Positions 1,427-60,202 of a stretch of 64,000 bases of DNA are shown one piece after another. How positions within the stretch are numbered: position 1 is the first letter of the stretch; every line of letters begins with the position of its first letter. Below the pieces are notes generated by a model that saw only the letters and a list, made by a program, of their open reading frames with translations, had not been told where the DNA came from and ran no database searches. Source of the stretch: a virus (Duplodnaviria > Heunggongvirae > Uroviricota > Caudoviricetes); IMG/VR virus record IMGVR_UViG_3300047554_000527, positions 8,387 through 72,386 of that record, one strand, 5' to 3'. The position numbers and the translations under genes were made by a program.

Positions 1427-1435
1427 ATTAAAAAT

Positions 1436-1662: not shown

Positions 1663-1669
1663 ATAAAAC

Positions 1670-1744: not shown

Positions 1745-1750
1745 ATAAAT

Positions 1751-1825
1751 TGGTATCGCGTACGGGAATCGAACCCGTCTCTTTGGCTTGAAGGGCCAAG
1801 GACCTACCCAGAAGTCCAACGCGAT
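1751..1825 (-). tRNA. tRNA-Glu (UUC), tentative (C instead of U at position 33)
   Basis: T-arm 1762-1778 perfect, perfect anticodon stem 1783-1787/1795-1799 (codon GAA), acceptor 1755-1761/1819-1825 perfect. Confidence 0.5.
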
Positions 1826-1831
1826 ATAAAT

Positions 1832-1907
1832 TGGTGGAAGCCGAGGGAATCGAACCCTTCTAGACAGGAATCTTGCAAGGATACCCCGTAGCCCACTACT
1901 GCCCCCA
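1832..1907 (-). tRNA. tRNA-like gene, isotype undetermined (canonical T-arm, acceptor 3' strand and CCA, but no canonical anticodon/D arms by hand)
   Basis: T-arm 1843-1859 with AATCGAA loop, tgg 1832-1834; 5' portion (GGGGGCAGTAGTGGGCTACGGGGTATCCTTGCAAG...) does not fold canonically. Confidence 0.3.
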
Positions 1908-2334
1908 ATTAAAAAACACACTATTGAGAATTCAACTCAAGTCCGCCTAGCGGTACGACGCTGTTAGTATGTTTGTTAATTGGCTCCGTATCTGGGTAAC
2001 GATCCCAGCTAATCATTGATTAACAGTCAAGTCCGTGCACCATGCTCGAATTCTACGGAATATAAATCTTGTAGGCTACGCTTTTCCAATTCGCCCCTAC
2101 TTGAGTTGCTCTGCTCTGTCACTGTGTTTTATTCTCTGCCTAGTTACAGTTCTAGTCAGCGGTTCGAGGTGTTTTTATTTGTAACACCTTACCTTCTCGG
2201 GTCACCGCCCCCGGCCTTGACGCTGAGGCTTGCGACACAGATTCGTTCTGTGCTGACGGGATTAAACAGGATAGCTTTTGTCGCTAGACAACCAAAAAGT
2301 TTAGCTTTGAAATTTGCTGTAACTATCCTAAAAC

Positions 2335-2408
2335 TGGTTCCTCCAACAAGAATCGAACTTGTAATGACCGGTTATCAGCCGATTGTTATACCATTTAACT
2401 ATAGAGGA
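2335..2408 (-). tRNA. tRNA-Ile (GAU)
   Basis: T-arm 2346-2362 perfect, anticodon arm 2367-2383 (codon ATC), D-arm GTTA/TAAC, acceptor 2339-2345/2402-2408, A73. Confidence 0.6.
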
Positions 2409-16299: not shown

Positions 16300-16303
16300 C
16301 TAT

Positions 16304-18316: not shown

Positions 18317-19428
18317 CTCTGTACAATAGTAATAATTGTATTACCGCCCGAATTAACTCTGTTCTTAAATTCAATACTACCCTGAATCTGTGTTATTACA
18401 CTGTTTTGTGTAAGAGGAGTTGTGACACATTGTAAGTCACTACCGTTATCTCTACAAAGACCTACTTGACCTTCGTCTTTGGTTACAACTATTCCGCTGG
18501 ATCTACGCCAGTCGGGCAATACACTATCTACATCATCTTTTAGATAATCTTCATCTAATCCATTTCCAATAATGTCAAACAAACTGTCTAAGAAATGATT
18601 GTCTAAAAAGTTACGAGTTAGTCTATCTTGAAAGAATTGTGCGTTCTGTTGATCTAGTTTGTTTTCTAATCCTTGCTCTCTTAAGAAATCGACATCTAAT
18701 ACATTAACTGTCGAAGCTGAATCTTTTTTGCTTGCTTGTTTTAATTCTAGGGGTGGGCTAAGAATTAAAAGATTGCTCATAGCATCTTCACTTAGATTTA
18801 AAATTATTGGTCTAGTAGGTTGAGCACTTCTGCTATTAACCTTAGTTGCTTGGAAAGGTTGATTAAGAATAACTTGCCCAACGTCAGTTTCAACAATAAT
18901 AGTGCCAGTAATACAGTTAGCTTCTATATCACGTTTAGATCTAGTAGGACGGTCGTTGGGACAACTAGGTAATAGTACAACTGTGCTAGCACCTACTTCA
19001 TCTACTGTGGCTGTAAAATCTGTACCACGAACACTGATAGTAGCAGTAGGAGTATTAACAGCTACGTTTTGCGGCGAGTTTTTAGCAATTTGGCCGCTGG
19101 CGTACCTAACAGTGCCCAGTGCCACCTTAACGCCCAACTTACCAGCCTTACTTTTAGGATCATATACAAAGTCATCAATTACTAGTCTTGAGTTTTCATT
19201 AACCTGTACTCGAGTCTGATCCTCGAAGGTTATTCCAACTTTGCCCGCCGCTGTCTTTACTGAATCGTTCATCTCGACTCCTGTGCCCTTGTTGGCCGTT
19301 AGCGTCGAGTTCTTGCGCTGTATGCTGGGAGGTGTGTTCAGCAACTCGGTCACTGTTCCTATATTGGCATGACTGCTCAATGAGAAACTCGTCAATAAGC
19401 CTAATAAGATTAAGCGACATAGTGTCAT
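18313..19428 (-). CDS. secreted protein of unknown function within curli-like operon
   Basis: signal peptide MTLCRLILLGLLTSFSLSSHA; 371 aa; 4-nt overlap with flanking genes. Confidence 0.4.
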   Translation of the reverse strand: MTLCRLILLGLLTSFSLSSHANIGTVTELLNTPPSIQRKNSTLTANKGTGVEMNDSVKTAAGKVGITFEDQTRVQVNENSRLVIDDFVYDPKSKAGKLGVKVALGTVRYASGQIAKNSPQNVAVNTPTATISVRGTDFTATVDEVGASTVVLLPSCPNDRPTRSKRDIEANCITGTIIVETDVGQVILNQPFQATKVNSRSAQPTRPIILNLSEDAMSNLLILSPPLELKQASKKDSASTVNVLDVDFLREQGLENKLDQQNAQFFQDRLTRNFLDNHFLDSLFDIIGNGLDEDYLKDDVDSVLPDWRRSSGIVVTKDEGQVGLCRDNGSDLQCVTTPLTQNSVITQIQGSIEFKNRVNSGGNTIITIVQR

Positions 19429-19436
19429 TTCACACC

Positions 19437-20219
19437 TTAATTACCAGTGATAATAGTGTATGTATTTCCGCTACCTGCTATAGCAAGATTAACAGTAGTA
19501 TCAATAGTACCACTTTGTGTGATAGTTGTGCTATTGCTAGAACCGGTAATGTTCAATGTAGCATTATGTCCATTGACTCCGCCTCCACTTTGAGTGATGC
19601 TGGTTACGTTAGTTGCTCCATTAGAAGTTAAATTAACTGTGCCTTTTGCACCAGTTAAGTTAAGAGTAGTAGAGTTTCCACCACCACCTGTTTGGTTAAG
19701 AATAACACTAATTTGATCAGCATTAAGAGTTGCTACAACACTGTTGTTAGCGCCACCTGCTGTATCGACTACAAAACTACTGTTAGAACCTAACATGTTT
19801 AAGTTAGCGATAGCACCATCGCCTGTTTGTTCAATATTAACAGTGTTGCTATTAGCTGTACCAGTTTCGGCATTGTTCATGTTGATTGTACCTACAGCAT
19901 TGTTACCTGTAACTTTATAGATTACACTAGTATCAACACCGCCGCTGGCTGTGGCTGTAACAACACCTAAGTTTAAAATGTTGCCGCTACCTATTTGTTC
20001 TACAGTTAATGTAACGTTATCACCTTTAATTTTAGACGGTGTGGTGTTACCTGTACCGGAACCTTGTATTCCTCGAATACGGTTTGATGCACCATCTTGT
20101 GTCATTGTAATAACACCATTGTCGCCTGCTTGATCGACGTAGATGGTATTGTCTGCCGCAAAAGATGACGCAGCAAACAATATCGCTATAACTGCCATAA
20201 CTTTATTCAGCTTCTTCAT
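19437..20219 (-). CDS. secreted curlin-repeat protein (CsgA/CsgB-like amyloid subunit candidate)
   Basis: signal peptide MKKLNKVMAVIAILFAASSFA (start 20219); repeated ITQSGGGVNGHNATLNITGSSNSTTITQSG units; Gly/Asn/Thr/Gln-rich. Confidence 0.55.
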   Translation of the reverse strand: MKKLNKVMAVIAILFAASSFAADNTIYVDQAGDNGVITMTQDGASNRIRGIQGSGTGNTTPSKIKGDNVTLTVEQIGSGNILNLGVVTATASGGVDTSVIYKVTGNNAVGTINMNNAETGTANSNTVNIEQTGDGAIANLNMLGSNSSFVVDTAGGANNSVVATLNADQISVILNQTGGGGNSTTLNLTGAKGTVNLTSNGATNVTSITQSGGGVNGHNATLNITGSSNSTTITQSGTIDTTVNLAIAGSGNTYTIITGN

Positions 20220-20281
20220 ATATACTACCAGTTCTTTTGGAACTGTCTCCTTGTTGGGGGAATTATGTATCATTCCCCGTT

Positions 20282-21193
20282 TTATTTGGTCCTAATTTCT
20301 TTGCTTCCTTCAGCATTTTTTCCGTTGCCGGACTGTTCCGTTGGGGGAGTTGCTTCTGCGGCTCCTTTACTCTCGGTCGTCTTTTGAACCAGCTCATTTT
20401 TATCTCCTTTGTAGTTCCAAAGCCCTTTACGAGCTCCATCTTTAATTAGCTCAACTACTCCGGCTTCGATTGCGGCCTTGACAGCATAAGTGCCCGGCTC
20501 GTTAATCGTTAAACCTGCTTCACCCTCAAACGCTTTAGTTCCCATATCAAAAAACTTCAATGCTGTTACCGCATCAGCACTACTGATGATTGTTTTTTGT
20601 ACGGTTACTGATGTAAGAACTTTACCAGTATTCACGCTAACTGCTCGCAAACTGATAGTAACTACATCCTGACTCCACTGTGTCTGTTTGCCTATTCCAA
20701 AAACTCTGGCTCCGATGCCACCGCTTTTAATAGAGCTATCATACCCAATAATACCGCCTTCTATAATAATCCCTGCAAACTGCATGGGCATTAAAGGTTT
20801 TGCGTTGTTGCCTTCATATGCTTCGCGCATCTGACGGATAATTAATCTTTCTTTAGTTAAGTTGTCAATACCTACACGCTCAACAACATCAAACCAACGA
20901 CCGCCACCTACATCTTGTAGGGCTTTAATCAAGAAGCTTTCCGCCCCTTGTGTTACTGCTGTACTTAAACTAGCAATGTTAGCCTGAGGGCGACGTTGTC
21001 CTGTTAGATCTCTAAAACTATAAACTGCTACACTTACTGGCCTTTCTGCTGCCGGTAATGGAACGGTATCAAATTCTTTCTGCATTACGCTAGAAGGAAT
21101 TGTTGGCATCTCTTCAAGAAGCCCATCTTGCTGTGTTATTGCACAGCCTGTTAATAAACTTGTGATTGCTAGAGTTAATAGTGTCTTTTTCAT
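20282..21193 (-). CDS. csgG: curli production assembly/transport lipoprotein CsgG
   Basis: lipobox LLTGC; extended colinear similarity to E. coli CsgG (...VAVY.F.D.TGQ..., ...A.VMVEGSIIGY.SNVKSGGVGARYFGIG..., ...NEPV..C.M.AIE.GV..LI.DG...GLW). Confidence 0.8.
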   Translation of the reverse strand: MKKTLLTLAITSLLTGCAITQQDGLLEEMPTIPSSVMQKEFDTVPLPAAERPVSVAVYSFRDLTGQRRPQANIASLSTAVTQGAESFLIKALQDVGGGRWFDVVERVGIDNLTKERLIIRQMREAYEGNNAKPLMPMQFAGIIIEGGIIGYDSSIKSGGIGARVFGIGKQTQWSQDVVTISLRAVSVNTGKVLTSVTVQKTIISSADAVTALKFFDMGTKAFEGEAGLTINEPGTYAVKAAIEAGVVELIKDGARKGLWNYKGDKNELVQKTTESKGAAEATPPTEQSGNGKNAEGSKEIRTK

Positions 21194-48327: not shown

Positions 48328-48345
48328 ATTATCTCCTTGTTAATT

Positions 48346-48420
48346 GGTGCGCTAGGCGGGAATCGAACCCGCGATTCAGAGTTTTAGAGGCTCCTGCTAT
48401 GCCACTTAGCTACTAACGCA
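48346..48420 (-). tRNA. tRNA with anticodon CUA (amber/UAG-reading suppressor tRNA candidate)
   Basis: perfect T-arm GCGGG-TTCGATT-CCCGC, 7-bp acceptor GCGTTAG/CTAGCGC, encoded CCA, A73; anticodon stem GGAG/CUCU(+C-A) with 7-nt loop C-U-CUA-A-A. Confidence 0.5.
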
Positions 48421-48429: not shown

Positions 48430-48813
48430 TTATACACTATCATGCGAATATGTCAAGACATCAAATAGCTCAGCATACTCAACTTGAGGCTCCATGTGAA
48501 AGCCTGTACCCCACACTACCCACACCCTCCTCTTATATACCTTTCTACCCCAAATCTTTTTCCCCCCAACAGTCTTAACTGGTAACCAAGCAAATACTTC
48601 ACGCCACGGATAGCAACCAGCACCGTCTGTAATAACAGTATATTCCATGTACTTCTTTCCAGGACTAGGATTGAATTTTTCTGCGCCTCTATAACTCATT
48701 CTTGCCTTATGTAGTTCTATATTGAACCCTATGCTCCGGCCCCATACTATCTTCATTTGACCAATGATTCGACGATACGATATTGACGAATTGCTTCTTC
48801 TACATTTTGCCAA
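48430..48813 (-). CDS. hypothetical protein
   Basis: 127-aa ORF. Confidence 0.35.
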   Translation of the reverse strand: MAKCRRSNSSISYRRIIGQMKIVWGRSIGFNIELHKARMSYRGAEKFNPSPGKKYMEYTVITDGAGCYPWREVFAWLPVKTVGGKKIWGRKVYKRRVWVVWGTGFHMEPQVEYAELFDVLTYSHDSV

Positions 48814-49106
48814 GCAATATCCAATGCTGGATTAGGTGTTTCTTTCATTTTGTGCAACTGAACACTGGGAGGATCTTGGTCTGTCCAATCATCGGGCGTA
48901 GCATCTGTCCAATAATAGACAATAGCATAACTACTGCTAAGGGATTGATAAGTGCGCCACTCGTTTATTTTCTTGTCGTAATAGACATAGCCGTGGTCGC
49001 TATCACCATCTGCCTTGCCGCCCATTCCCCAACCGCGATAACATAGATAGTATCCCGAATTATCAGGTTGCCGTTGTTCTGTACGATGCCAAATGCTTGT
49101 TCTCAT
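48753..49106 (-). CDS. hypothetical protein
   Basis: 117-aa Trp/Tyr-rich ORF. Confidence 0.35.
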   Translation of the reverse strand: MRTSIWHRTEQRQPDNSGYYLCYRGWGMGGKADGDSDHGYVYYDKKINEWRTYQSLSSSYAIVYYWTDATPDDWTDQDPPSVQLHKMKETPNPALDIAWQNVEEAIRQYRIVESLVK

Positions 49107-49411
49107 AATTCGGGTATTTTTACAATGTGATCTGGAATTGAGTGAAAGATTTGAAGTATCTTTAAATCATCACCGTACTTTAATTTTAGCATAGATTCTT
49201 GTTTATCGCAAGTTGTTGTAATTCGTATAAAAGGACTTCCTGCACCCACATGCCATTGAGATCCGTCGGTTGCGGTAATGACCTGTGGTTCCGGTACTAC
49301 GACTTCTACATGACATTCTAGACCAATAATGAATGTAGCATCGATCACTGTAGCGTCAGGTCTGTGTAAGGCCCAAATTTTTCTTTTAATCATACCCATC
49401 TCAATATACAC
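49103..49411 (-). CDS. hypothetical protein
   Basis: 102-aa ORF, 4-nt overlap packing. Confidence 0.35.
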   Translation of the reverse strand: MYIEMGMIKRKIWALHRPDATVIDATFIIGLECHVEVVVPEPQVITATDGSQWHVGAGSPFIRITTTCDKQESMLKLKYGDDLKILQIFHSIPDHIVKIPEL

Positions 49412-49620
49412 ATCGCAGCAACCTTTTCATCATAGAACCAAACATCCAGTTCTCGTTTGTCAATGGCTATCCGCATACTATAATGTCCTGGTTGCCAATC
49501 AGTTGCTTCATCTAGCCAATCTCTTATAGTTTTGATTTCTTCAACCGCAAGATCAATTTCCCAAACATTACTAGTACGGAGAGGAATGACTACACGGTGT
49601 TCGAGATTATTCATGACCAC
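49390..49620 (-). CDS. member of paralogous small-protein family (C-terminal F..LRW motif)
   Basis: ends ...WFYDEKVAAMCILRWV. Confidence 0.45.
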   Translation of the reverse strand: MVMNNLEHRVVIPLRTSNVWEIDLAVEEIKTIRDWLDEATDWQPGHYSMRIAIDKRELDVWFYDEKVAAMCILRWV

Positions 49621-49877
49621 TTTAGGCTAAACAACACAGCATCTTTTTCTTTGGAAAACATCCAAATGCTTCCTCTACCTCTATATATGCCCGACAAGTT
49701 TGTTCTACACCATTCTTTAATATGATGTGCCTGTAGCTCATTCATCCTATCAGACCATTTCATTTTGACTTCAGTCCAGCCAATAGTCTTTAACATGTCG
49801 CACATAATTTCCCAGTCTATTTCTTCCTGGATCATCTTAGCCATATCTTCGACCATAGTTTCTTCAGTGTTTTTCAT
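49611..49877 (-). CDS. member of paralogous small-protein family
   Basis: ends ...HHIKEWCRTNLSGIYRGRGSIWMFSKEKDAVLFSLKWS. Confidence 0.5.
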   Translation of the reverse strand: MKNTEETMVEDMAKMIQEEIDWEIMCDMLKTIGWTEVKMKWSDRMNELQAHHIKEWCRTNLSGIYRGRGSIWMFSKEKDAVLFSLKWS

Positions 49878-49878
49878 A

Positions 49879-50208
49879 TTACATCCACCTTAGCGCAAAC
49901 ATGACAGCATCTTTCTCACGTTTGAATACAAACTTATTGTGGTTGTTGTTCCAATACCTTCCCTTGAAACGTTCCCAGCACCAACGTTCAGCTTCAGTAA
50001 TCTTGTCACGAGCAACGGTATATTGATAGGGCCAGTGTTTCTTGCTATAAGGTTTATTAAACCAATCGTAATAGTATTCTTTGAATAGACTTTTACCAGT
50101 TCCCATCATAGGTTGTACTCCTACAATCTGACTAGCTATTGTCTGCGGCATTATATTCCTTATGATGGGAATCATTACTTTCGGATCAGAAGTTGTGTTT
50201 ATAGCCAT
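49879..50208 (-). CDS. member of paralogous small-protein family
   Basis: ends ...ERWCWERFKGRYW...FVFKREKDAVMFALRWM. Confidence 0.5.
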   Translation of the reverse strand: MAINTTSDPKVMIPIIRNIMPQTIASQIVGVQPMMGTGKSLFKEYYYDWFNKPYSKKHWPYQYTVARDKITEAERWCWERFKGRYWNNNHNKFVFKREKDAVMFALRWM

Positions 50209-50492
50209 TTTAAATAGTAAATTACTGCATCTCGTTCAGGAACATAGAATTCGATATCGCTCAGACCAATCTGCCACAAAGGCCAATCTGTATGATCTTG
50301 CCACACACTACAATTCTTTTGTATCCAATCACAGCGTTCCCACCATGTTATTCTGTCGGTGATGCGGACAAGTGCCCACTCCACTTGATCAAGAAGAATG
50401 TCAGATATTTGTCCGGAACATCCAGGGTCCATTCTAGTTCCTTCGACCACTCTTGAGGTAGTATGCTCATAGCATGAATCAATTCGGCACAT
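50199..50492 (-). CDS. member of paralogous small-protein family
   Basis: ends ...EFYVPERDAVIYYLKWL. Confidence 0.45.
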   Translation of the reverse strand: MCRIDSCYEHTTSRVVEGTRMDPGCSGQISDILLDQVEWALVRITDRITWWERCDWIQKNCSVWQDHTDWPLWQIGLSDIEFYVPERDAVIYYLKWL

Positions 50493-50701
50493 TTTTCTCT
50501 ATCAATGTCTCTTTCAAAACACCATCTAATAATATCAATGGCGTAACGGTAAGGCAAAGGATTTAAATCTAAAATCATGAACTCCACTTTAGTGCAAACA
50601 TTGTTGCATCTTTTGTGTTTCGAAAGTAATAATGAACACCTTTCATTGTAGGAACCATGTTCCAACGGCCTTTGAAAGCACCCATGTTCTCGCCTAGCCA
50701 A
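50348..50701 (-). CDS. hypothetical protein (overlaps family members; possibly alternative frame)
   Basis: 117-aa ORF overlapping neighbours; no family motif. Confidence 0.2.
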   Translation of the reverse strand: MARREHGCFQRPLEHGSYNERCSLLLSKHKRCNNVCTKVEFMILDLNPLPYRYAIDIIRWCFERDIDREKCAELIHAMSILPQEWSKELEWTLDVPDKYLTFFLIKWSGHLSASPTE

Positions 50702-50787
50702 GTTTCAATGTAATAGTGATAGCCGTCAAACTCATCTTTAGGGATAAGAATTTTTGCAGGCCACAACTCTTTTTTAAGAACTCTCAT
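50575..50787 (-). CDS. member of paralogous small-protein family
   Basis: ends ...GAFKGRWNMVPTMKGVHYYFRNTKDATMFALKWSS. Confidence 0.5.
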   Translation of the reverse strand: MRVLKKELWPAKILIPKDEFDGYHYYIETWLGENMGAFKGRWNMVPTMKGVHYYFRNTKDATMFALKWSS

Positions 50788-51221
50788 GACATATCCGTAC
50801 TAATAGCACGCCACACTTTCATTTTCTTTTGAGTGCGCTCGTTATCTTCTTCAGCCTTTTTGCGAGCGCCTATTTCAGTTTGTGCCCTAAAGTCTAGCCT
50901 ACGATTTTCTTGTCTAAGTTCTTCAATAAAATCTGCCACAGTGAGTGTTTCGCGCTCTGCTAGTTTTTCCTGTGTAGTATGCAGTTCTCGACTTAGATAG
51001 TCAATTTCGTTTTCTAGGTGATTAATGTAATCTCCCGGATCGTAAGTGTTTTCAAACAGGCAGGTTTCTGGATTCATGCCTACATCTTCTAAACGCTTTA
51101 GAATGAAGCCGGGCATATTATCCATTATCTTAGCAAGCCTAACACGTACAGGATCTGTGTCATACTTAATAATATGATCGATCAGTTCTCCGTCTGTTAA
51201 ATGATTTAAATTCATGACCAC
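50784..51221 (-). CDS. hypothetical coiled-coil protein
   Basis: 145 aa, charged heptad-like region. Confidence 0.35.
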   Translation of the reverse strand: MVMNLNHLTDGELIDHIIKYDTDPVRVRLAKIMDNMPGFILKRLEDVGMNPETCLFENTYDPGDYINHLENEIDYLSRELHTTQEKLAERETLTVADFIEELRQENRRLDFRAQTEIGARKKAEEDNERTQKKMKVWRAISTDMS

Positions 51222-51505
51222 CTCAAAATAAACACTGTCATATCCCGCTCGTCCTTGAAATAGAACTTGCCTTCCTTTTCAAACCAACGAGCACCACTCT
51301 TGCCGTATTGTTCAAGACACCAATCTCGAGCAGGATCAACAATGTTCATGTGCTTGTTCCTTTCAGTAACAGGTAATGTGACCCAACTATAGGTCATGCC
51401 CCAACCTTTGGCTGTGCCCTTTTTCATTGGAGCAATTTCTGGCTCCATTTGAACACCATTAAACGAACTAGCAGTAAAAGGACCAATACTTACACTCATA
51501 ATCAA
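51212..51505 (-). CDS. member of paralogous small-protein family
   Basis: ends ...DWCLEQYGKSGARWFEKEGKFYFKDERDMTVFILRWS. Confidence 0.5.
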   Translation of the reverse strand: MIMSVSIGPFTASSFNGVQMEPEIAPMKKGTAKGWGMTYSWVTLPVTERNKHMNIVDPARDWCLEQYGKSGARWFEKEGKFYFKDERDMTVFILRWS

Positions 51506-51726
51506 TCTTTCGATAAAATTCTACGTTGTGCCTTATTACAGTAACCACAACTTCTAAATTGTTCTACATAATCGTATGCACCGCGACGATTCTTAACAGG
51601 ATCTCTCCACGGCAACCAAGTATGAACTCCGCAGGCACATTGCCATTGTTTTCTAGCAAGCAAGGGTTTCTCCGACAATGCTCGCATAGTGTTTTCTTTT
51701 TCTATGTTCATAAACAATTGTAACAT
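51502..51726 (-). CDS. hypothetical Cys-containing small protein
   Basis: 74 aa with CxC...C..C pattern. Confidence 0.3.
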   Translation of the reverse strand: MLQLFMNIEKENTMRALSEKPLLARKQWQCACGVHTWLPWRDPVKNRRGAYDYVEQFRSCGYCNKAQRRILSKD

Positions 51727-51727
51727 A

Positions 51728-52174
51728 TTATGTCCATTTGAGCAAGAACATTAGGTAGTCTCGCTCGTTTTCAAAAGCAAAAAACAGAGCATCTCCGCCC
51801 ATTTCGTTTATTTCCAAACTGTACTGGGCTTGATATACACGGAGAATGTCGTGCCGCCAAGCGCCCTGGCAACTGTCTTTGCACCAATCTCTAATAGCTT
51901 GATATCCTTCCATCCAAGTTGGATATAGAATAAATGGCGCCACGCGACTTGAATGATATGAATAGAAAAATGGATAACCGTGATAGTAATCTTTAACACG
52001 ATTAGCTCCCTGGTTGCGTCGAGGATCGTTATACTCTTGATACTGCTCCTCAGTCCAACCCATTTTTTTAAGATAATTACGGTGCTGATAAAAGTCGTAG
52101 CGGTGTTTTAACTCTTCTACGACATTTGCCATCAGTTCTTTGATGCTTTCAATCTGCTTTTTTTCGACCATCAA
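51728..52174 (-). CDS. member of paralogous small-protein family
   Basis: ends ...IRDWCKDSCQGAWRHD...FFAFENERDYLMFLLKWT. Confidence 0.5.
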   Translation of the reverse strand: MMVEKKQIESIKELMANVVEELKHRYDFYQHRNYLKKMGWTEEQYQEYNDPRRNQGANRVKDYYHGYPFFYSYHSSRVAPFILYPTWMEGYQAIRDWCKDSCQGAWRHDILRVYQAQYSLEINEMGGDALFFAFENERDYLMFLLKWT

Positions 52175-52415
52175 GATACTCCGAATATTTTAGCAGGAAC
52201 ATGGTACGCTTAGGTTCGTCATAGAAGTCTAAACAGATGTGACTCATGTAACCCTTCTGATGATCGTACCATAGATGCTCTCGTTCTACAAACCCTAAGA
52301 CTTTCTTACGCTTATCGCGGATCATCATGACACTAGGGCTGTAGTCGTTGGTTAGACGATTCTTCAGCTTTTCCCACTGATGATGCAATAGTACAATTGG
52401 TTTGCTCATGACCAC
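52149..52415 (-). CDS. member of paralogous small-protein family (divergent)
   Basis: contains ...FYDEPKRTMFLLKYSEY... Confidence 0.4.
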   Translation of the reverse strand: MVMSKPIVLLHHQWEKLKNRLTNDYSPSVMMIRDKRKKVLGFVEREHLWYDHQKGYMSHICLDFYDEPKRTMFLLKYSEYLDGRKKAD

Positions 52416-52603
52416 CTCAACAGAAACATCATATGATCCCGACGATCAGCAAAATAGATTTTAGGATGCCTATAGTGCCATCGGCGGCCGTCTCCTGGGC
52501 CAAACTTAACCTGTAGCCATTCGAACACTTCGTCAGGTACCCTGACATTATTCAGTTCGACTACATAGTATTCGTGATTGATAATTACACCTGGATGTAT
52601 CAT
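52406..52603 (-). CDS. member of paralogous small-protein family
   Basis: ends ...FEWLQVKFGPGDGRRWHYRHPKIYFADRRDHMMFLLRWS. Confidence 0.5.
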   Translation of the reverse strand: MIHPGVIINHEYYVVELNNVRVPDEVFEWLQVKFGPGDGRRWHYRHPKIYFADRRDHMMFLLRWS

Positions 52604-53355
52604 AACTTAGTTAATATTTCTTTCATTTGACGGTATCGGTCTAGTTTTGTTCTAGCACCTAACACAACTACAATGTACCGCTGGGCATTCTTTTCGACCA
52701 TCATGCCCAGGCACCAACCAGCCGGAGTAGTTAGACCAGTTTTAGTAAGTGTAATATTATCAAACTCGAACAACAGCTCTTGGTTGGTATTTTGAAGTTC
52801 GATCTTTCTTATTTTGTTTTTAATGATCTGTTGAAATGACGCTTCTTTTTTAGTTGTAGTTTGTTTGATCAAGGGATAAGTGGCGCTGGCAATCAGCAGT
52901 CTCTTAACGCCAAGAATAGTAGTAACATTCCTACTATCTAGACCGCTGGCATCGCTAAAGTTTGCACTAGGCATTTCTAATAGACGTGCTTTGGCATTCA
53001 TTGCTTCAATAAATGCAGTTCTGCCTCCGGGATAATCTTCTGCTAGCGTTTCTGCGGCGTTGTTATCACTGCGAACTAACATAGCCTGTAGCAGTTCTCC
53101 ACGTGTCCATGTTCCATGTGGAAGAACTCCCCATACTTTAGCTACGGATTTTAAAGGTCGATCTAAATCAGTGCTGTAGTCAAGTGCCACCATTGCAGTC
53201 ATTAGTTTAGTAAGACTGGCAATAGGCCGTACTTGATCTACATTTTCTTGTATTAGAGCATGTCCTGTATCTGTGTTGTATAGCAGGACGCTCTGCGGAA
53301 TTGGTTTAGACCAAGCAGAGCCACATAACAGAATAAGGGCAAGGAACCGAAACAT
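52600..53355 (-). CDS. D-alanyl-D-alanine carboxypeptidase (peptidase S11, PBP5/6-like) with signal peptide
   Basis: SxxK (IASLTKLMT), SxN (RSDNNAAE), KTG (LTKTGLT) motifs in correct order. Confidence 0.65.
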   Translation of the reverse strand: MFRFLALILLCGSAWSKPIPQSVLLYNTDTGHALIQENVDQVRPIASLTKLMTAMVALDYSTDLDRPLKSVAKVWGVLPHGTWTRGELLQAMLVRSDNNAAETLAEDYPGGRTAFIEAMNAKARLLEMPSANFSDASGLDSRNVTTILGVKRLLIASATYPLIKQTTTKKEASFQQIIKNKIRKIELQNTNQELLFEFDNITLTKTGLTTPAGWCLGMMVEKNAQRYIVVVLGARTKLDRYRQMKEILTKL

Positions 53356-54655: not shown

Positions 54656-54704
54656 CTAAATCTCCTATGTTGATGTATTATTATAGCAGGAGATGTGGTA
54701 AAGG

Positions 54705-55727
54705 TCAAGCAGGATTTCTTATCCAAATTATTTCGTGTGGTGTGTATTTGAATAATGGTTGATTGGGAGCAGGATGAACTGGCTTTACATTAATTGGACA
54801 CCTATCTCCAATCCGTTCTTTAAATTTTTTATAAACTGATTGGGCTGTGTCCAAATTACCAGGATCAACCATAATACGAACATTTACCCAATTTGAACCA
54901 CGACCTACAATAGCTTGCTCAACACTATCCAAAAACTTTTCAACTCCTTGTTCCTTAACATAATTTAGGTGTATGCTAAAACAGACATCGCTGACTGCGG
55001 CCAACTCACAATAATATTCTGCATTTCTACTACCGTTGGTTGTAGTAATAGACCGATGTCCTATGCTGTATAGATATTGTACAAAGGGCAGATAATCTTT
55101 ATAAACAGTTAATTCCCCGCCAAGCATACTGAATTTCACTCTAGCTCCATGTATCCAATATTGATCAATACTATGATAGGCAGACACCATTTGTTCTAAT
55201 GTTTTGTGTGCTTCGTGATTGTTGTGATCAGATTCTGGACAATACCAGCAATCAAAATTGCACCTTCTTCCCAATGCCCATGTTATAGTTTTAAAGTTAG
55301 TATCATTCGTTGATATTACCATATCGGCTTTTACTGTGTCGTGCTGACTATCTAACTTAAACTCTTCAACTATTCCATCTTTAAAAAATTCAACAACCTG
55401 CTCTTGTTGCTTAACTTTAGGGATTTCCATGTCTGCACCACAAGTACAAAGGTTCTTAGAACAAACAATCCATTCTTTATTAGATTTTAAATCATGTGTT
55501 ATTGTATAGATGTTTCCTATTATGCCGCCTTCTCTACAGACAGCGTTGTAGATATTTCCGTCGTAGTCGATATACAGAGAATTAAGTCCTGCTGAACAAA
55601 ACCAGTCTTTCCAATGACTTAGACCTTTTCCTAACATGCTTTCTACAGTATGCAGAGCATAGTTTTTATTTTGATCTATTAGGACAATATTTTTGCCTGT
55701 AAAGGGTATGCTCTTAGAAGTTGTCAT
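54705..55727 (-). CDS. radical SAM domain protein
   Basis: CNFDCWYC (Cx3Cx2C) cluster; start taken at MTTSKSIPF (55727) to avoid overlap with divergent ALAS gene; alternative 55823. Confidence 0.5.
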   Translation of the reverse strand: MTTSKSIPFTGKNIVLIDQNKNYALHTVESMLGKGLSHWKDWFCSAGLNSLYIDYDGNIYNAVCREGGIIGNIYTITHDLKSNKEWIVCSKNLCTCGADMEIPKVKQQEQVVEFFKDGIVEEFKLDSQHDTVKADMVISTNDTNFKTITWALGRRCNFDCWYCPESDHNNHEAHKTLEQMVSAYHSIDQYWIHGARVKFSMLGGELTVYKDYLPFVQYLYSIGHRSITTTNGSRNAEYYCELAAVSDVCFSIHLNYVKEQGVEKFLDSVEQAIVGRGSNWVNVRIMVDPGNLDTAQSVYKKFKERIGDRCPINVKPVHPAPNQPLFKYTPHEIIWIRNPA

Positions 55728-55758
55728 AGTAATATTTATTTGGTTAAATACACACATT

Positions 55759-56952
55759 ATGATTAAACCTAAGTCACAAGACGCTATTGCCGCTAGCTTA
55801 GAAAAACTTAAAACTGAAGGCAACTATAGGGTTTTCACCGACATTCTTCGTGAGCGTGGTGAGTTCCCTAAAGCTGTTTATTACGGCAAATACAATATTA
55901 AACATATCACCAATTGGTGTAGCAACGACTATCTAGGCATGGGACAACACAAAGTTGTTCTAGATGCTATGCATACCGCACTAGATACGGCAGGTGCAGG
56001 ATCCGGAGGCACTCGAAACATTTCCGGCACGACACACTATCATGTAGCCCTAGAATGGGAATTGGCCAAGCTTCACGACAAGACCAGTGCTTTATTATTC
56101 ACTAGTGGTTATGTTGCCAATCAAGCAACATTAAGTATCTTAGGTCGTATGATTCCCGGAGCACACTATATCAGTGATGCTAATAATCACAATAGTATGA
56201 TTGTAGGAATGAAGTCAGCACAGTGTCCTATCACAGTGTGGAAACATAACGATCTAGCACACTTGAGAGAAATACTATCAGCATTAGATTCGTCGGCACA
56301 ACCTATTATTGCCATGGAAGGTGTGTATAGTATGGATGGCGATAAAGGTTTAATCAGCGACGTTTGCGAAATTGCTCGTTTGTACGGCGCTATGGTCTAT
56401 GTTGATGAAGTACATGCTGTAGGCTTATACGGTACAAGAGGTGCTGGTGTAGCAGAAGAACAACGTTGCATCGACGGAGTGGATGTATTTCAAGGCACCC
56501 TGGCCAAAGCCTATGGAGTACAGGGCGGGTACATTGCCGCTGGCAGAGACTTAGTCGATATGGTTCGCAGTTATGCACAGGGATTTATTTTCAGTACTAG
56601 TATGAGTCCTGTACTGTGTGCAGGTGCGCTGGCCAGCGTAAAGTATGTCAGTGATCATCCTGAGCTACGTGATCGTATTTTTACAGTGGCGCAACAGACT
56701 AAGGAACACTTGTTGTCCAACGGCATTGATGTTCTAGAAGGCAATACACATATTGTACCTATTATGGTACGTGATGCTAAAAAATGTAAGATGATCAGTG
56801 ATTGGCTGCTAGAAGAACGTGCTATCTATCTACAGCCTATTAACTATCCAACAGTACCTTGGGGCACCGAACGACTTCGCGCTACTCCATCGCCTAACCA
56901 CACAGAAGCAGACATAGATTATTTGACAAGAAGTCTTAAGGAGATATTATGA
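55759..56952 (+). CDS. 5-aminolevulinate synthase (alpha-oxoamine synthase family, ALAS/HemA-like)
   Basis: start MIKPKSQDAIAASLEKLKTEGNYRVFTDILRERGEFPKA...WCSNDYLGMGQH and DEVHAVGLYGTRGAGVAE...GTLAKAYG closely track Rhodobacter HemA; PLP-lysine context. Confidence 0.7.
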   Translation: MIKPKSQDAIAASLEKLKTEGNYRVFTDILRERGEFPKAVYYGKYNIKHITNWCSNDYLGMGQHKVVLDAMHTALDTAGAGSGGTRNISGTTHYHVALEWELAKLHDKTSALLFTSGYVANQATLSILGRMIPGAHYISDANNHNSMIVGMKSAQCPITVWKHNDLAHLREILSALDSSAQPIIAMEGVYSMDGDKGLISDVCEIARLYGAMVYVDEVHAVGLYGTRGAGVAEEQRCIDGVDVFQGTLAKAYGVQGGYIAAGRDLVDMVRSYAQGFIFSTSMSPVLCAGALASVKYVSDHPELRDRIFTVAQQTKEHLLSNGIDVLEGNTHIVPIMVRDAKKCKMISDWLLEERAIYLQPINYPTVPWGTERLRATPSPNHTEADIDYLTRSLKEIL

Positions 56953-57368
56953 ACAAGATTAAAAAAGCGTTTTGGGTTGCTCTAGGATTCCTATTCTTAG
57001 GCATAGCTTATATTGGCGTTGTAACGCCCGGGATCCCCTGGAGCACACCTACAGTTATTGCCGCATTCTGTTTTGCCAAAGGTAGCGAGCGTTGGCACAA
57101 CTGGATCATGAATCACAAGCTGTTCGGTCCGTTCCTCAGCAACTGGGGAGAGAAGCGTGTGTTTCCGACTAAAGCCAAGTGGGCTATGTTTATTACCATG
57201 GACTGTAGCTTGATTATTATTTGGCTCACTACCGGCAACTGGAAAGCTGTAGTGGGAACAGGCATCTTTATGATGATGTGTGCAGTATGGGCTTGGCGCT
57301 ATCCGGGTAGCGTAGAAGAATGGAAACGCCGTGTAGATAACGGCTTAAAGGTCGGCTGGTTCAAGTAA
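56949..57368 (+). CDS. YbaN/DUF454-family inner membrane protein
   Basis: N-terminus MNKIKKAFWVALGFLFLGIAYIGVVTPGIP... typical of DUF454. Confidence 0.55.
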   Translation: MNKIKKAFWVALGFLFLGIAYIGVVTPGIPWSTPTVIAAFCFAKGSERWHNWIMNHKLFGPFLSNWGEKRVFPTKAKWAMFITMDCSLIIIWLTTGNWKAVVGTGIFMMMCAVWAWRYPGSVEEWKRRVDNGLKVGWFK

Positions 57369-57566
57369 CTGAGCGTTCCAACGTAGGCACATGAGTAGAG
57401 CATCTTTTGTATTAGAAAACTCGAACTCCATGTTTTCTACGTTGGCATGAGTTACAAACCGTTCGCCGGGCAATCCATAGTGTTCGATTGCCCAGGCACA
57501 GACTTCGTTCCAATAGGTATTGTTATCAAAATCTCGAATCCAAGATATGCGTACTACAGCAGTCAT
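57345..57566 (-). CDS. member of paralogous small-protein family (isolated copy)
   Basis: ...YWNEVCAWAIEHYGLPGERF...FEFSNTKDALLMCLRWNA. Confidence 0.45.
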   Translation of the reverse strand: MTAVVRISWIRDFDNNTYWNEVCAWAIEHYGLPGERFVTHANVENMEFEFSNTKDALLMCLRWNAQLLEPADL

Positions 57567-57961
57567 CGAGTCTTTTCTGCTAGGTCTTTATAACCTGCCC
57601 AACTGGGATGAACTCCGTCGGGTTGCAATCGTGTAATTGGCAATACAGTATCTCCGTACTCTGTTGCCATATTCTTAACAATATCTTGAATTTCAGGTTT
57701 GATTGCAGGCAGTATCCAAAATACTCTTGTGTTCGGACCTACCTTTTCTCTAATGCGTTGTAATTCTGCCTTAGTTCGAACACCCTTGTGGTCGTTACTA
57801 CCTAGGCTGATAATAACTGTACGAGCAGCCAAATTATTTTTAAGGTAATCGCGATTCCACTGCCAAGTATTCCACCCACCTTTGGCATGGGCAACACATT
57901 CAGGCCGAAACTGATGTGTGCCTACTGCAATACTATCACCGAGAATTAAACAGTCAATCAT
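57563..57961 (-). CDS. SGNH/GDSL-like hydrolase
   Basis: N-terminal ILGDSIAVG block. Confidence 0.5.
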   Translation of the reverse strand: MIDCLILGDSIAVGTHQFRPECVAHAKGGWNTWQWNRDYLKNNLAARTVIISLGSNDHKGVRTKAELQRIREKVGPNTRVFWILPAIKPEIQDIVKNMATEYGDTVLPITRLQPDGVHPSWAGYKDLAEKTR

Positions 57962-58488
57962 CGTGGTCTGATTTTTAGTTTAGCATAGACATTTTGTACG
58001 CCCACTGCCTGACGAATAGCATCTTGTAGAGCATCGTGCTTACTGCCCTTGGGCATGTCTGGATCAACACCGAGGTCAAACAGTGTGCGGGTATCCCGCA
58101 ATTGCCAATAGTTCCAAGGACGTGGCTTTTTAAGTTGGCTGTATAGGCTTTCTAAAATTACCAAGTCGAATGTAGCGCCGTGGCTCCAAAATGCATCACA
58201 CCCCCAGGCAAACTTATGAAACTGATCCATAGCATCTGCAAGTGGAATACGATTGTCGGGACTGAACGCTTCTTCCATAATAACAGGATCTTGCTTGGCC
58301 CACCAATCAAGTGTATTTGGATCAATTTCTCGACCTAGCGCATCTTGATCGTCGAGATTAATTTTGAAATACAGTTTATCACCGTATCCATTACCATAGG
58401 GATTAAAATGTACTGCGCCTAGACTAAGAACTACAGCATTAGGTGAGACAGCCATGGTCTCCATATCGACCATTAGGTGTTTTGGCAT
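57958..58488 (-). CDS. dexA: DexA-like 3'-5' exonuclease (DEDD family)
   Basis: MVDMETMAVSPNAVVLSLGAVHF resembles T4 DexA ...IIDFETMG...AVIDLAVIAF. Confidence 0.6.
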   Translation of the reverse strand: MPKHLMVDMETMAVSPNAVVLSLGAVHFNPYGNGYGDKLYFKINLDDQDALGREIDPNTLDWWAKQDPVIMEEAFSPDNRIPLADAMDQFHKFAWGCDAFWSHGATFDLVILESLYSQLKKPRPWNYWQLRDTRTLFDLGVDPDMPKGSKHDALQDAIRQAVGVQNVYAKLKIRPR

Positions 58489-58724
58489 TAGTTTAGCTTT
58501 CTGGGTTCGTCTGGAAGATCGTTGAGCTTACGAAGTAGAGTTTCTGCAAACTCTGGATCTTCGTCAATTAGTTCGTCGATGTCCAATGGTTGAGATTTTT
58601 CAAAGAGCTCACCGCTTTCGGCCATACGCTGAATTTCAGCAACCAACTCGTCGAGCTCTTCCTGTGTGCCTTCAAAGTTTTCAAAAGCACCAGGGGCGAA
58701 TTCAATTTTGATTTTTTTGTCCAT
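58488..58724 (-). CDS. hypothetical acidic protein
   Basis: 78-aa ORF. Confidence 0.3.
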   Translation of the reverse strand: MDKKIKIEFAPGAFENFEGTQEELDELVAEIQRMAESGELFEKSQPLDIDELIDEDPEFAETLLRKLNDLPDEPRKLN

Positions 58725-58755
58725 GCGTTAATTATACTATAATTCTTTACGCTTG

Positions 58756-58986
58756 TCAATACATTTTCTTGGGTAATTGTTGTTCTCTGAGTTTTTTTAA
58801 CCAACGAGAACGAGCGGCTCCGGCTTTTCTTTTGCGCTCTGTTGTGGGTTTTTCATAATGCTGCCGTGCTAGAACATCGATCAGTTTATTTGACTCATCC
58901 ACTTTCTTTTTAAATTTTCTTAGGGCAACATTTACGTTGTCATCGCGGACTTCTACAGTTAATCCTCTTTTATTGCTTTTTCTCAT
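58756..58986 (-). CDS. rpsU: ribosomal protein bS21
   Basis: ...VALRKFKKKV...QHYEKPTTERKRKAGAARSR... matches bS21 (ALRRFKR...EFYEKPTTERKRAK). Confidence 0.75.
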   Translation of the reverse strand: MRKSNKRGLTVEVRDDNVNVALRKFKKKVDESNKLIDVLARQHYEKPTTERKRKAGAARSRWLKKLREQQLPKKMY

Positions 58987-60202
58987 TTTCTACTTTGTCA
59001 AAAATTAGCACAGCTGGTTTTCCATCAACTGTTTCTTTACTTATCACAATTTTGGTTAAACCACGTTGCACAAGCTCAGCGGCTTCGAATTGATATTTAA
59101 GAAGAATTTTTTCAATAATATTTTTAAGTCCGCGGGCGTTAGTATCTAGCTTTTTAGCCTGTTCTGCAATAGCAACTAAGGCATCGTCTTCGAACTGTAG
59201 CTCAACTCCGTCTAGTTCGAAAATATATTGATACTGCCTAACTAGGCTGTTTTTTGGTTCTTTAAGAATCTTGGTTAAGTGTTCAATTTTCAATTCTTCG
59301 ACACTGGTACTAATTCCAAAACGGCCGATAAACTCAGGAATGAGTCCAAAACTGATTAAGTCCTTAGTAACAACTTCTTTGAAAAGGTCGTCACGTTCTA
59401 CAGCCTGCTCGAGTTTAGAGCCGAATCCAATAGAGCTAGTCTTAGTTCTACGACTGACAATCTTGTCAAGGCCGACAAATGCTCCACCGCAGATAAACAG
59501 AATGTTGCGTGTATCGATTTCGTTCATTTCACCACGAGGATGCTTACGCTTTTCTCCTGCAGGTAATCGAACTACACTGCCTTCAATCATTTTAAGCAGG
59601 CCCTGCTGTACGCCTTCACCACTAACATCTCGTGTAATACTAGTACTTTCACCCTTACGAGCAATCTTATCAATCTCGTCGATATATACAATACCGTGCT
59701 CTGCTTTTTTAATATCACCGTCGGCATTGGCTACTAGACGTACAAGAACACTTTCAACGTCGTCGCCGACATATCCTGCTTCAGTAAGACCTGTAGCATC
59801 GCAGATAGCAAACGGTACATCTAGATACTCTGCTAGTTTGCGTACAAGGAATGTCTTGCCGCAACCTGTAGGACCCATCATTAGCACGTTAGTCTTATCG
59901 ATCTCAATGTTTTGATCGTTTTTGGCAATACGCTTGAAATGTTGGCATACTGCTACAGCTAAGGTCATCTTAGCTTCGTCTTGTCCAATAACGTATTCGT
60001 CAAGATACTCTTTTACTCGAACAGGATTGAGTAACTGAGATGTGTCGGAGGGAAACTTTTTGATCTTTTCTTCTTTTAGAATATCAACACATAGATCAAC
60101 ACAGTCATTGCAGATGGCAATATCGTCACCACCTACAATTAACTTTTCAACTTCTTCTTTAGTTTTGCCGCAGAAACTGCAACTGGGAGTCTTTTCAGCC
60201 AA
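58970..60202 (-). CDS. clpX: ATP-dependent Clp protease ATP-binding subunit ClpX
   Basis: N-terminal CSFCGK...CNDC zinc-binding domain, Walker A GPTGCGKT, 410 aa. Confidence 0.85.
   Translation of the reverse strand: MAEKTPSCSFCGKTKEEVEKLIVGGDDIAICNDCVDLCVDILKEEKIKKFPSDTSQLLNPVRVKEYLDEYVIGQDEAKMTLAVAVCQHFKRIAKNDQNIEIDKTNVLMMGPTGCGKTFLVRKLAEYLDVPFAICDATGLTEAGYVGDDVESVLVRLVANADGDIKKAEHGIVYIDEIDKIARKGESTSITRDVSGEGVQQGLLKMIEGSVVRLPAGEKRKHPRGEMNEIDTRNILFICGGAFVGLDKIVSRRTKTSSIGFGSKLEQAVERDDLFKEVVTKDLISFGLIPEFIGRFGISTSVEELKIEHLTKILKEPKNSLVRQYQYIFELDGVELQFEDDALVAIAEQAKKLDTNARGLKNIIEKILLKYQFEAAELVQRGLTKIVISKETVDGKPAVLIFDKVENEKKQ

Follow-up and report, generated by a model that had tools for sequence, protein, structure and literature searches.

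A translationally coupled array of small phage genes encodes members of a large unnamed protein family

Introduction

What does a phage gain from a packed string of small related genes, and how is such a string held together while its content changes? Many small genes of large phages are unexplained, and the present analysis defines one very large unnamed family among them. The window (the whole stretch of viral DNA analysed, 64 kb) carries an array of small minus-strand ORFs at 49390-52603. The original prediction described these as a tandem array of at least ten paralogues from a diversifying, unrecognised family, in a region resembling the hyperplastic regions of T4-like genomes.

Results

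The ORFs and their C-terminal motifs were found at the predicted positions. A family HMM was built from the last 26 domain columns of 313 homologues, with the window and its near-identical relatives excluded, and was run on every stop-to-stop segment of the window (986 in total). The C-terminal similarity proved statistically supported: this independent HMM matched eight minus-strand ORFs in 49390-52603 and the predicted extra copy at 57345-57566, with E-values from 3e-14 to 1.4e-4 (individual values are given below for the extra copy and seven of the array ORFs). The next-ranked matches included three further array ORFs (52149-52415, 50199-50492, and 50348-50701), with spurious segments ranked between them. 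These three keep F.L(K)(W/Y) remnants, none is individually significant, and HMM iteration over 4,583 sequences failed to recruit them. Eight plus one of the ten or more predicted paralogues are thereby proven, and by way of the three weak ORFs a count of at least ten members is, judged from sequence, likely. Two array genes (50784-51221 and 51502-51726) lie outside the family.

All array genes are read from the minus strand. The array opens with the minimal single-domain form of the family (52406..52603, 65 aa, HMM E 4.5e-10, dN/dS 0.04-0.07), whose start overlaps the stop of an S11 peptidase gene (ATGA). It is followed by a probable degenerate member of 86-88 aa (52149..52415, ...FYDEPKRTMFLLKYSEYLDGRKKAD) with a non-significant HMM match (E 0.2-1); since its dN/dS is 0.03-0.06, we regard it as a real gene. 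The member of 147-148 aa at 51728..52174 (E 9.5e-6 to 1e-14 with differing models) has a long N-terminal extension and an insert of about 20 residues between strands 2 and 3. Its dN/dS was 0.13 against the related phages L001 and L003 and 0.06 against L004, and similar long forms occur in L008, L010, and L017. The adjacent 74-aa gene with two Cys pairs (51502..51726) gave no HMM match and is a non-member; it has a homologue in L007, and a diverged allele takes its place in L001 and L003, with a dS of about 1 versus 0.1-0.3 in most neighboring genes. Next come a member of 95-97 aa (51212..51505, E 1e-10), the 95-aa form of which is identical to database protein P0001, and a non-member companion of 143-145 aa (50784..51221), coiled-coil-like by eye and with no family or Pfam match, whose homologue adjoins family members in L007 (E 3.4e-16).

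The 70-aa single-domain member at 50575..50787 (E 2.9e-14) has many homologues of 69-70 aa. Behind it lies 50348..50701, a probable degenerate member (E 3.9, not significant) that has 76 aa when read from the ATG at 50578; it ends ...KYLTFFLIKWS plus a nine-residue run-on and overlaps the next gene in another frame; compared with L001 it showed 11 synonymous changes and one non-synonymous change. For a probable divergent member of 77-97 aa (50199..50492, ...IEFYVPERDAVIYYLKWL, E 0.09-2.7), phmmer detected an orthologue (E 6e-24) in L017, a 393-kb contig of a distant phage, and that orthologue matches the family HMM at E 0.0012. The array closes with a 109-aa member that carries a capsid-like N-terminal tail before the family domain (49879..50208, E 4e-12), an 88-aa member (49611..49877, E 7.9e-8, dN/dS 0.04), and a last member of 74-76 aa (49390..49620, E 1.4e-4 with the independent HMM and 2.8e-5 with a seven-member model). 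The solitary 73-aa copy (57345..57566, minus strand, E 2.1e-12) ends in an LRWNA... tail and belongs to a subfamily of 73-87 aa, which supplies most of the top database matches. Its position between a GDSL-like gene and DUF454 is fixed, being the same in L001, L002, L003, and L018.

The predicted picture of a C-terminal signature of about 40 residues behind divergent N-termini understated the shared part: the shortest members consist of one domain of about 55 residues and nothing else. An AF2 model of the 65-aa member 52406..52603 (pLDDT 84.6) is beta-alpha-beta-beta-alpha, and the same fold was predicted for the 109-aa member, in agreement with the proposed common scaffold. The family comprises 1,660 clusters at 50% identity with the fold kept throughout, and among the best 150 of these clusters no larger multidomain protein was found. 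Conserved residues are mainly aromatic or hydrophobic, with glycines, one Arg, and one Asp; none looks catalytic, and one end of the domain bears the conserved G..G.R and KD residues. Members vary in charge, N-terminus, first strand and helix, and the loop between strands 2 and 3. The pI ranges from 4.6 to 9.8, Trp makes up 5% of residues, and a TM-like segment was seen in one of 286 family proteins.

The family was indeed unrecognised. The shared domain gave zero matches to the HMMs of Pfam-A, PHROGs v4, NCBIfam 20, and PADLOC 2.0, and no match in the PDB; in the curated libraries only Gp23 and major-head models matched, within the N-terminal tail of 109-aa-type proteins. A search of one genome for each bacterial species, with a single subfamily as query, found no family protein. 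INPHARED contained no DNA match to the window, and tblastn with the 97-aa member found none there either; a weak INPHARED match in Sinorhizobium phage Phosso was upheld by the family HMM (E 3.9e-14). The rIIA protein encoded in the window is 32% identical to its best match, from Pseudomonas phage PA5oct. No earlier description of the family was found in the literature searched.

Orthologues of the array genes are under strong purifying selection: dN/dS was 0.00-0.13 for all robust members, positive selection was not detectable, and the predicted diversifying character of the family is in that sense not supported. For 51212-51499 versus L001 and L003, 22-26 synonymous changes and 0 non-synonymous changes were counted. 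Among the weak ORFs two of three had dN/dS of 0.02-0.06, and the value of 0.48 for 50199-50492 comes from a gene that overlaps another. The only DNA-level repeat across the array is a 3' coding motif of about 33 nt (63-79% identity), and the similarity between members is therefore old and at the protein level. On the sequence evidence, the diversity of the family is the product of old paralogue divergence (20-40% identity) and of gain and loss of cassettes, not of detectable positive selection.

The array is a string of genes coupled in translation. An ATGA overlap follows each of the stops at 52600, 52406, 51212, 50784, 50575, 49611, and 49390; three junctions have spacers of 1-2 nt (TAATATG twice, TGATTATG once), and three longer overlaps measure 10, 23, and at least 85 nt. 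The shared junction, TTGAGGTGGKCATGA, reads LRW(S/A)-stop and also contains a ribosome-binding site and the start codon of the next gene, so that the last codons of a typical member double as the translation start region of the gene that follows. One form of it, TTGAGGTGGTCATGA (LRWS-stop, a GAGG ribosome-binding site, and the next gene's ATG), is exact at 51212..51226 (minus strand) and again at 52406-52420, and has two mismatches at 49390-49404. Inside the array no sequence matched a promoter at better than 9/12, and none made a convincing terminator. Upstream of the same-strand gene run that includes the array lies a host-type promoter candidate (54680..54708, minus strand, TTGACC-17-TG-TATAAT), a consensus match of 11/12.

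The region is hyperplastic, as had been proposed: gene content varies among close relatives at a fixed syntenic site, and the number of extra cassettes is 0, 2, or 6 among phages whose flanking genes are 92-100% identical. The window has the same array content as L002, L003 has two more cassettes, and L001 six more. The plastic island begins after the S11 peptidase gene, with NMNAT and NAMPT genes further on, and in the more distant syntenic relative L018 another set of small genes follows the same peptidase gene. Copy number was 9 robust members in the window, 12 in L001, 27 within 20 kb in L007, and 13 in L010, and subfamilies hold fixed positions across distant phages. The borders of the extra cassettes in L001 and L003 fall on or beside the junction motif, and each gain or loss thus preserves frame and coupling.

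Residues 10-38 of the 109-aa protein (49879..50208) match Pfam Gp23 (PF07068) at E 1.7e-5. Only positions 6-34 of this capsid profile of about 376 positions (HK97-like fold) are covered, and the idea that the protein is itself a capsid protein was rejected because of this fragmentary match. The capsid-like segment (residues 8-42; 50083..50187, minus strand) is a copy of the stretch that gp23-type major capsid proteins conserve best, a stretch shared by T4-like, cyanophage, and Rak2/CBB-like capsids. The subfamily HMM aligns to residues 97-125 of T4 gp23 (30 bits) and to residues 56-88 of the CBB capsid protein (50 bits), and a tblastn search with the segment hit 473 phage records, nearly all capsid genes among the matches listed. 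The 109-aa type makes up 22 clusters, in which the tail is conserved; their identity to the window protein is 43-94%, in most cases 53-68%. The tail is predicted to be flexible or disordered, since its AF2 pLDDT is below 50. The 64-kb window holds no capsid gene, and the 50-residue tail as a protein query gave no candidates for the phage's own capsid protein.

In T4 the Gol segment is, we assume, gp23 residues 93-122. It has been described as a 29-residue region that binds EF-Tu, lies in the first quarter of gp23, and is better conserved than any other part of that protein; the Gol peptide is the activator of Lit, binding domains II-III of EF-Tu and enabling Lit to cleave it (PMC3014915). The match of the tail (gp23 97-125) falls in the quarter of gp23 that PMC3014915 assigns to Gol. 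Only one subfamily has the capsid-like tail, and the other long N-termini match nothing. BLASTP against T4 gp23 and Pfam searches of 36 long members gave no support for the idea that the 88-aa member and its relatives took their N-terminus from a later part of gp23. The N-terminus of the 95-aa member (..FNGVQMEPE..), considered as a decayed capsid tail, was undetected by the tail HMM, and P0041 and P0286, whose alternative N-termini resemble a helicase or terminase by eye, had no family of either kind among their Pfam matches.

Discussion

We tentatively favor the hypothesis that the array supplies early, non-enzymatic small binding proteins for host takeover or counter-defence. On this view the array encodes small cytoplasmic phage proteins of an unnamed family, built on one beta-alpha-beta-beta-alpha domain of about 55 residues. 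The string would be transcribed from the host-type promoter candidate at 54708-54680, a consensus match, and if so would be expressed early in infection. The junction itself may serve as the microhomology for recombination that adds or removes cassettes. The types of residue conserved, together with the variable charge, N-terminus, and loops, suggest that the proteins are non-enzymatic binders; with such variable surfaces they would make up a repertoire in which every small adaptor or inhibitor has its own host or defence target. Purifying selection between orthologues counts against this hypothesis, as it is not the usual signature of an arms race. So do the lack of any fusion pointing to a target among the best 150 clusters and the restriction of the capsid-like tail to one subfamily. 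In the 109-aa member the flexible tail would be the variable part and would bind the partner of the capsid segment. In T4 that partner would be EF-Tu and, through EF-Tu, the Lit suicide protease, and the tail would be a mimic or competitor. A Gol-like peptide made early could also trigger a Lit-type protease and not block it, which counts against the mimic model.

A bolder, and quite unlikely, version would make the array a fast-reshuffling 'presenter' repertoire, in which a constant 55-residue scaffold shows variable peptides or surfaces resembling conserved phage proteins and thereby blunts the bacterial immune sensors for those proteins. The Gol-like capsid segment would then be the first recognizable mimic, and the coding junction would have evolved as a built-in recombination site for in-register cassette swaps.

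Other explanations start from the fold, the tail, or the junction. It is unlikely that the domain is a miniature nucleic-acid-binding module of KH-like or ferredoxin-like type and that the array encodes regulators which bind RNA or DNA and act on transcripts of the phage or its host. Scores of the family against two-layer alpha/beta domains of the KH, ferredoxin-like, and Tfb5/MzrA types lay below the usual homology threshold, and there is no sequence relation. KH domains have the order beta-alpha-alpha-beta-beta-alpha and a GXXG loop joining helices 1 and 2; the family fold lacks their second helix, and it also lacks the fourth strand of ferredoxin. A role as virion or assembly components (internal, ejected, or capsid-associated), with the tail directing the 109-aa member into the prohead, would fit the capsid-segment copy in one subfamily, and the T4 internal proteins are likewise a variable set of small proteins from a plastic locus. 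We consider such a role very improbable, given that most members have no capsid-like part, that the conserved part is C-terminal with no common N-terminal targeting or cleavage motif, and that the array, behind a host-type promoter, has auxiliary and metabolic genes as neighbors and is far from any structural gene in the 64 kb.

There is equally little probability that the proteins are weapons against competing phages, by superinfection exclusion or by dominant-negative poisoning of capsid assembly via the tail. The broad conservation of the copied segment across capsids and the differing repertoires of co-occurring strains are what would be expected of such weapons, but the tail would meet the phage's own capsid protein too, and there were zero matches to defence-system models. 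Breakpoints on or beside the repeated junction, wide variation in copy number among relatives, and two or three degenerate-looking copies would also be seen if the genes were selfish or near-neutral passengers, spread via the easily recombined junction and with no role in infection. Against this stand the low dN/dS in all robust members and in two of the three weak ones, the fixed positions of subfamilies across distant phages, and a fold conserved over 1,660 clusters, which together make passengers highly unlikely.

The family joins great size (1,660 clusters, up to 27 copies in 20 kb) and a confident fold model with genome rules: a fixed island, translational coupling, and breakpoints at a coding junction. 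The array is a model for how accessory genes expand and contract without breaking expression. One member offers a readable clue, a detached copy of a capsid segment that would correspond to the one which in T4 binds EF-Tu and triggers a suicide protease, which is of relevance to how phages handle capsid-sensing immunity.

One of the closest known parallels is with the hyperplastic regions and PeSL shuffling of T4-like phages (PMC4122927). In both, small accessory ORFs occupy a variable island flanked by conserved genes, close relatives differ in gene content, and a short repeated motif at the cassette borders appears to guide exchange. PeSLs are non-coding units of an early promoter and a stem-loop (PMC4122927), whereas the border in the array is coding (the last 4-5 codons, the ribosome-binding site, and the start). 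No early promoter with a stem-loop terminator is present between the array genes, which overlap or abut, and unlike PeSL-shuffled modules the array cassettes are paralogues of one family. The T4 internal proteins IPI-IPIII, a small variable set from a plastic locus with at least one anti-defence role, share an N-terminal sequence for capsid targeting and cleavage at the prohead-protease site. Array members share a folded C-terminal domain instead, and their N-termini are unrelated to one another. Gol within T4 gp23, to which the tail of the 109-aa member appears to correspond by its alignment to residues 97-125, is likewise a first-quarter segment in the most conserved gp23 stretch; in the 109-aa member the segment is no part of a capsid protein and is joined to a different domain. 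Two stand-alone capsid-fragment ORFs, USV40872.1 of Xanthomonas phage BUDD and L012 9842-10126, both unannotated and, unlike the 109-aa member, without the family domain, carry the same gp23-like segment, and the BUDD protein also has the ...GK.FKE(F/Y)Y residues that follow it in the 109-aa member.

Results

The minus-strand interval 49390-52603, which begins immediately after the gene for an S11 D-Ala-D-Ala carboxypeptidase (52600-53355) in the direction of transcription, holds twelve tightly spaced ORFs of 65-148 aa, the majority with the C-terminal pattern F.F..(E/K).DA..F.L(R/K)W(S/T/M/V/L). An HMM of the seven obvious members, searched against the 986 stop-to-stop segments of the window, recovered its own seven (E 1e-14 to 1e-26) and independently found 49390-49620 (E 2.8e-5). 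A stricter control HMM covered only the final 26 domain columns and was built from 313 homologues outside the window and its near-identical relatives; it matched eight ORFs in the interval and an additional one at 57345-57566 (E 2.9e-14 to 1.4e-4). Three other minus-strand ORFs of the array, 52149-52415, 50199-50492 and 50348-50701, were among the next-ranked matches; they were not individually significant and are probably degenerate members. For the 50199 type, phmmer found an orthologue (E 6e-24) in a distant contig of 393 kb, and this orthologue matches the family HMM at E 0.0012. Two minus-strand genes inside the array are non-members: 50784-51221, which looks coiled-coil-like by eye, and 51502-51726, which has two Cys pairs. 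The original prediction of at least 10 paralogues with a shared C-terminal motif was confirmed by HMM as regards the family, and its count was corrected to eight robust members plus one outside the interval, three probable members and two unrelated genes. The paralogues are old, since at the DNA level only a 3′ motif of about 33 nt is repeated among them (63-79% identity).

The equivalent contig (JGI Ga0451689_0001197) was 100% identical to the window in every gene tested, and L004, a near relative, was 99-100% identical across the genes it covers. The near relatives L001 and L003 were 92-99% identical in most genes. Against these two, robust members had dN/dS values of 0.00-0.13, the one exception being 49390-49614 against L003, where the value of 0.75 comes from only 8 substitutions. 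The 95-aa gene (51212-51505) differed by 22-26 synonymous and 0 non-synonymous changes. Two of the weak ORFs had values of 0.02-0.06, and the third, 50199-50492, which overlaps another gene, 0.48; all three evolve as genes. Each retained copy is firmly established to be under strong purifying selection, and the HMM statistics together with dN/dS exclude chance or a gene-calling artefact. Within 50199-50701, the ORFs 50348-50578/50701 and 50199-50432/50492 lie in different frames and overlap by at least 85 nt; gene callers differ on which to call, and the upstream ORF shows 11 synonymous changes and 1 non-synonymous change against L001. The Cys-pair gene (51502-51726, 74 aa) was only about 76% identical in L001/L003, and its synonymous divergence was about 1.0 versus 0.1-0.3 in most neighbours, a jump that indicates allele replacement by recombination within the array.

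Despite this gene conservation, L003 carries two and L001 six cassettes that are extra relative to the window. The extra cassette after the 95-aa gene has at both ends the 15-nt string TTGAGGTGG(T/G)CATGA, and the extra block after the coiled-coil gene runs from the stop/start overlap (...CATGA) of that gene to a further copy of the 15-nt string. This string terminates most members. In frame it reads Leu-Arg-Trp-Ser/Ala-stop, and it contains GAGG five bases 5′ of the next gene's ATG; the same bases therefore specify the end of one protein, a ribosome-binding site and a start codon. The breakpoints coincide with this junction, which may act as microhomology for recombination. The position of the island is fixed: in the more distant locus L018 the same S11 gene is followed by a different set of small genes, which extends as far as NMNAT and NAMPT, two genes found 6-10 kb beyond the array in the window. 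In L007, a distant IMG/VR contig, homologues of four unrelated small-gene families of the array and its flank (50784-51221, 51502-51726, 48753-49106 and 48430-48813) recur together among family members at 18016-19489, and such families travel with the array. The region had been predicted to be hyperplastic, which the extra cassettes and the L018 gene set bear out, and to hold a diversifying family; positive diversification was not seen in the dN/dS values.

The 65-aa member (52406-52603) was modelled by AlphaFold2 from a 59-sequence alignment (mean pLDDT 84.6) as strand 13-16, helix 24-34, strand 42-45, strand 48-51 and helix 54-64. The same fold was predicted for residues 58-109 of the 109-aa member (49879-50208; pLDDT about 85), whose N-terminal 50 residues had pLDDT below 50. 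On these models, the part common to members is an entire domain. Over 361 aligned sequences the conserved residues were Trp in strand 1 (92%), Trp in helix 1 (97%), the Gly after it (96%), Arg (70%) followed by Trp/Phe/Tyr at strand 2, Phe in strand 3 (100%), the Asp capping helix 2 (94%) and the terminal Leu-(Arg/Lys)-Trp (94%, 90% and 95%), positions that do not suggest a catalytic site. Isoelectric points ranged from 4.6 to 9.8, tryptophan made up about 5% of residues, and a membrane-like segment was seen in only 1 of 286 family proteins. The domain matched nothing in Pfam-A, PHROGs, NCBIfam, PADLOC or PDB sequences, and the best Foldseek match in the PDB had E 2.1, so the family has neither a name nor a structural assignment. 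Against predicted viral structures, Foldseek returned dozens of entries named "uncharacterized protein, uncultured Caudovirales phage" (best E 3e-3, probability 1.00) and a weak match to Agrobacterium phage Atu_ph07. Both the common scaffold and the unfamiliarity of the family had been anticipated correctly.

When 1.84 billion cluster representatives were searched with a profile, 1,660 proteins matched at E ≤1e-3, 59 of them at ≤1e-10. The best 150 of the 1,660 were all 51-213 aa long with the domain at the C-terminus; two of these 150 had two matched stretches, and fusion to a larger known domain was seen in none. Source names on database matches went no further than "hypothetical protein". 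Sinorhizobium phage Phosso (469 kb; HMM E 3.9e-14) was the one cultured phage confirmed as a carrier; it has a tRNA(cta) close to its own family member. At HMM E ≤0.01, arrays in uncultured relatives held 27 members in 20.3 kb (L007), 13 (L010), 11 (L006), 11 (the 393-kb contig) and 6 (L018). A query with a single subfamily gave no match in a set of bacterial genomes with one per species.

In the 109-aa member, residues 10-38 matched positions 6-34 of Pfam Gp23 (E 1.7e-5, just above the curated cut-off), and tblastn with the first 50 residues matched 473 phage records; among those listed, almost every one was a capsid gene from a cyanophage, a Rak2/CBB-like giant or a T4-like phage. Its subfamily is made up of 22 clusters at the 90% identity level, which share 43-94% identity with the window protein; many of the subfamily's proteins already carry a PF07068 flag, and ..PMIRK.MP..IAQQI.GVQPM.. 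is kept in 19 or 20 of the 23 aligned sequences (window protein included). An HMM of the tail matched T4 gp23 at residues 97-125 (30 bits), the CBB capsid protein at 56-88 (50 bits) and that of S-IOM18 at 77-108 (38 bits). We take the Gol span of gp23 to be residues 93-122. The Gol function maps to 29 residues within the first quarter of gp23; this stretch is the most conserved part of the protein and binds EF-Tu domains II-III and so enables EF-Tu cleavage by the Lit protease (review, PMC3014915).

Stand-alone small ORFs with the gp23-like segment and without the family domain occur in Xanthomonas phage BUDD (2447-2668, USV40872.1, 73 aa) and in a 358-kb contig (L012, 9842-10126, 94 aa), which suggests that the detached segment is an independent module. 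The BUDD ORF lies between two genes annotated "endonuclease". The capsid-like feature is not general: the other long N-termini of the family gave no matches, and two ideas of further capsid-derived pieces in other members failed when checked. In P0041 and P0286, database homologues of 49879-50208, a different N-terminus replaces the tail; the two replacements are alike, and their helicase- or terminase-like appearance by eye was met by no helicase or terminase match in Pfam.

A promoter-like site, TTGACC-17-TG-TATAAT, lies at 54708-54680 upstream of the same-strand gene run, and inside the array there was no promoter match above 9/12 and no convincing terminator. From this arrangement we infer early transcription by the host polymerase. 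The window derives from a large phage; it encodes, among others, 18 clustered tRNAs (24-2408, minus strand), rIIA (32% identity to PA5oct), NAMPT, NMNAT-Nudix, a radical SAM enzyme (54705-55823), an ALAS-like aminotransferase (55693-56952, plus strand), an Rv2179c-like exoribonuclease (57958-58488), ribosomal protein bS21 (58756-58986) and ClpX (58970-60202). DUF454 is also encoded within 54705-60202, and the 393-kb contig has heme oxygenase, bilin reductase, ClpS and HSP20 in addition beside its array. A minus-strand cluster at 14239-21193 (CsgG, a FecR-domain protein, an F5/8 type C domain protein and a CHASE2-adenylate/guanylate cyclase) is unusual phage cargo. Just downstream of the array, a minus-strand tRNA with a CUA anticodon (48345-48419; amber suppressor, labelled tRNA-Pyl by ARAGORN) is preceded by a promoter-like 12/12 sigma-70 consensus site at 48456-48429. 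TAG may be avoided or reassigned, because just 3 of the 102 crude ORFs with 60 aa or more stop at it, all three spurious-looking.

Discussion

Two results are firmly established besides the selection on each copy. One is the family itself, which is new, very large and of a defined fold. The other is the array, whose cassettes are translationally coupled, lie in a plastic island and have their breakpoints on or next to a dual-coding junction. Our tentative reading, somewhat short of an even chance, is that the array supplies a repertoire of binding proteins, made early and directed at host takeover or counter-defence, in which the 109-aa member would mimic a capsid segment. This reading fits best because the proteins are small and soluble, lack catalytic-looking residues and have highly variable surfaces, because the family is massively expanded and patchily retained in lytic-type large phages, and because a host-type promoter (a consensus match) lies upstream of the string of genes.

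Four other readings were weighed against this repertoire, each of them unlikely and all at about the same level. The domain might be a KH-like mini-domain that binds nucleic acid, or the products might have roles in the virion or its assembly. They might serve competition between phages, or the cassettes might be selfish passengers.

Accessory small-gene families in phage plastic regions are a known kind, and the array is a variant of these. Two features are unusual here: a coding junction at the borders of gained and lost cassettes, and the detached capsid segment.
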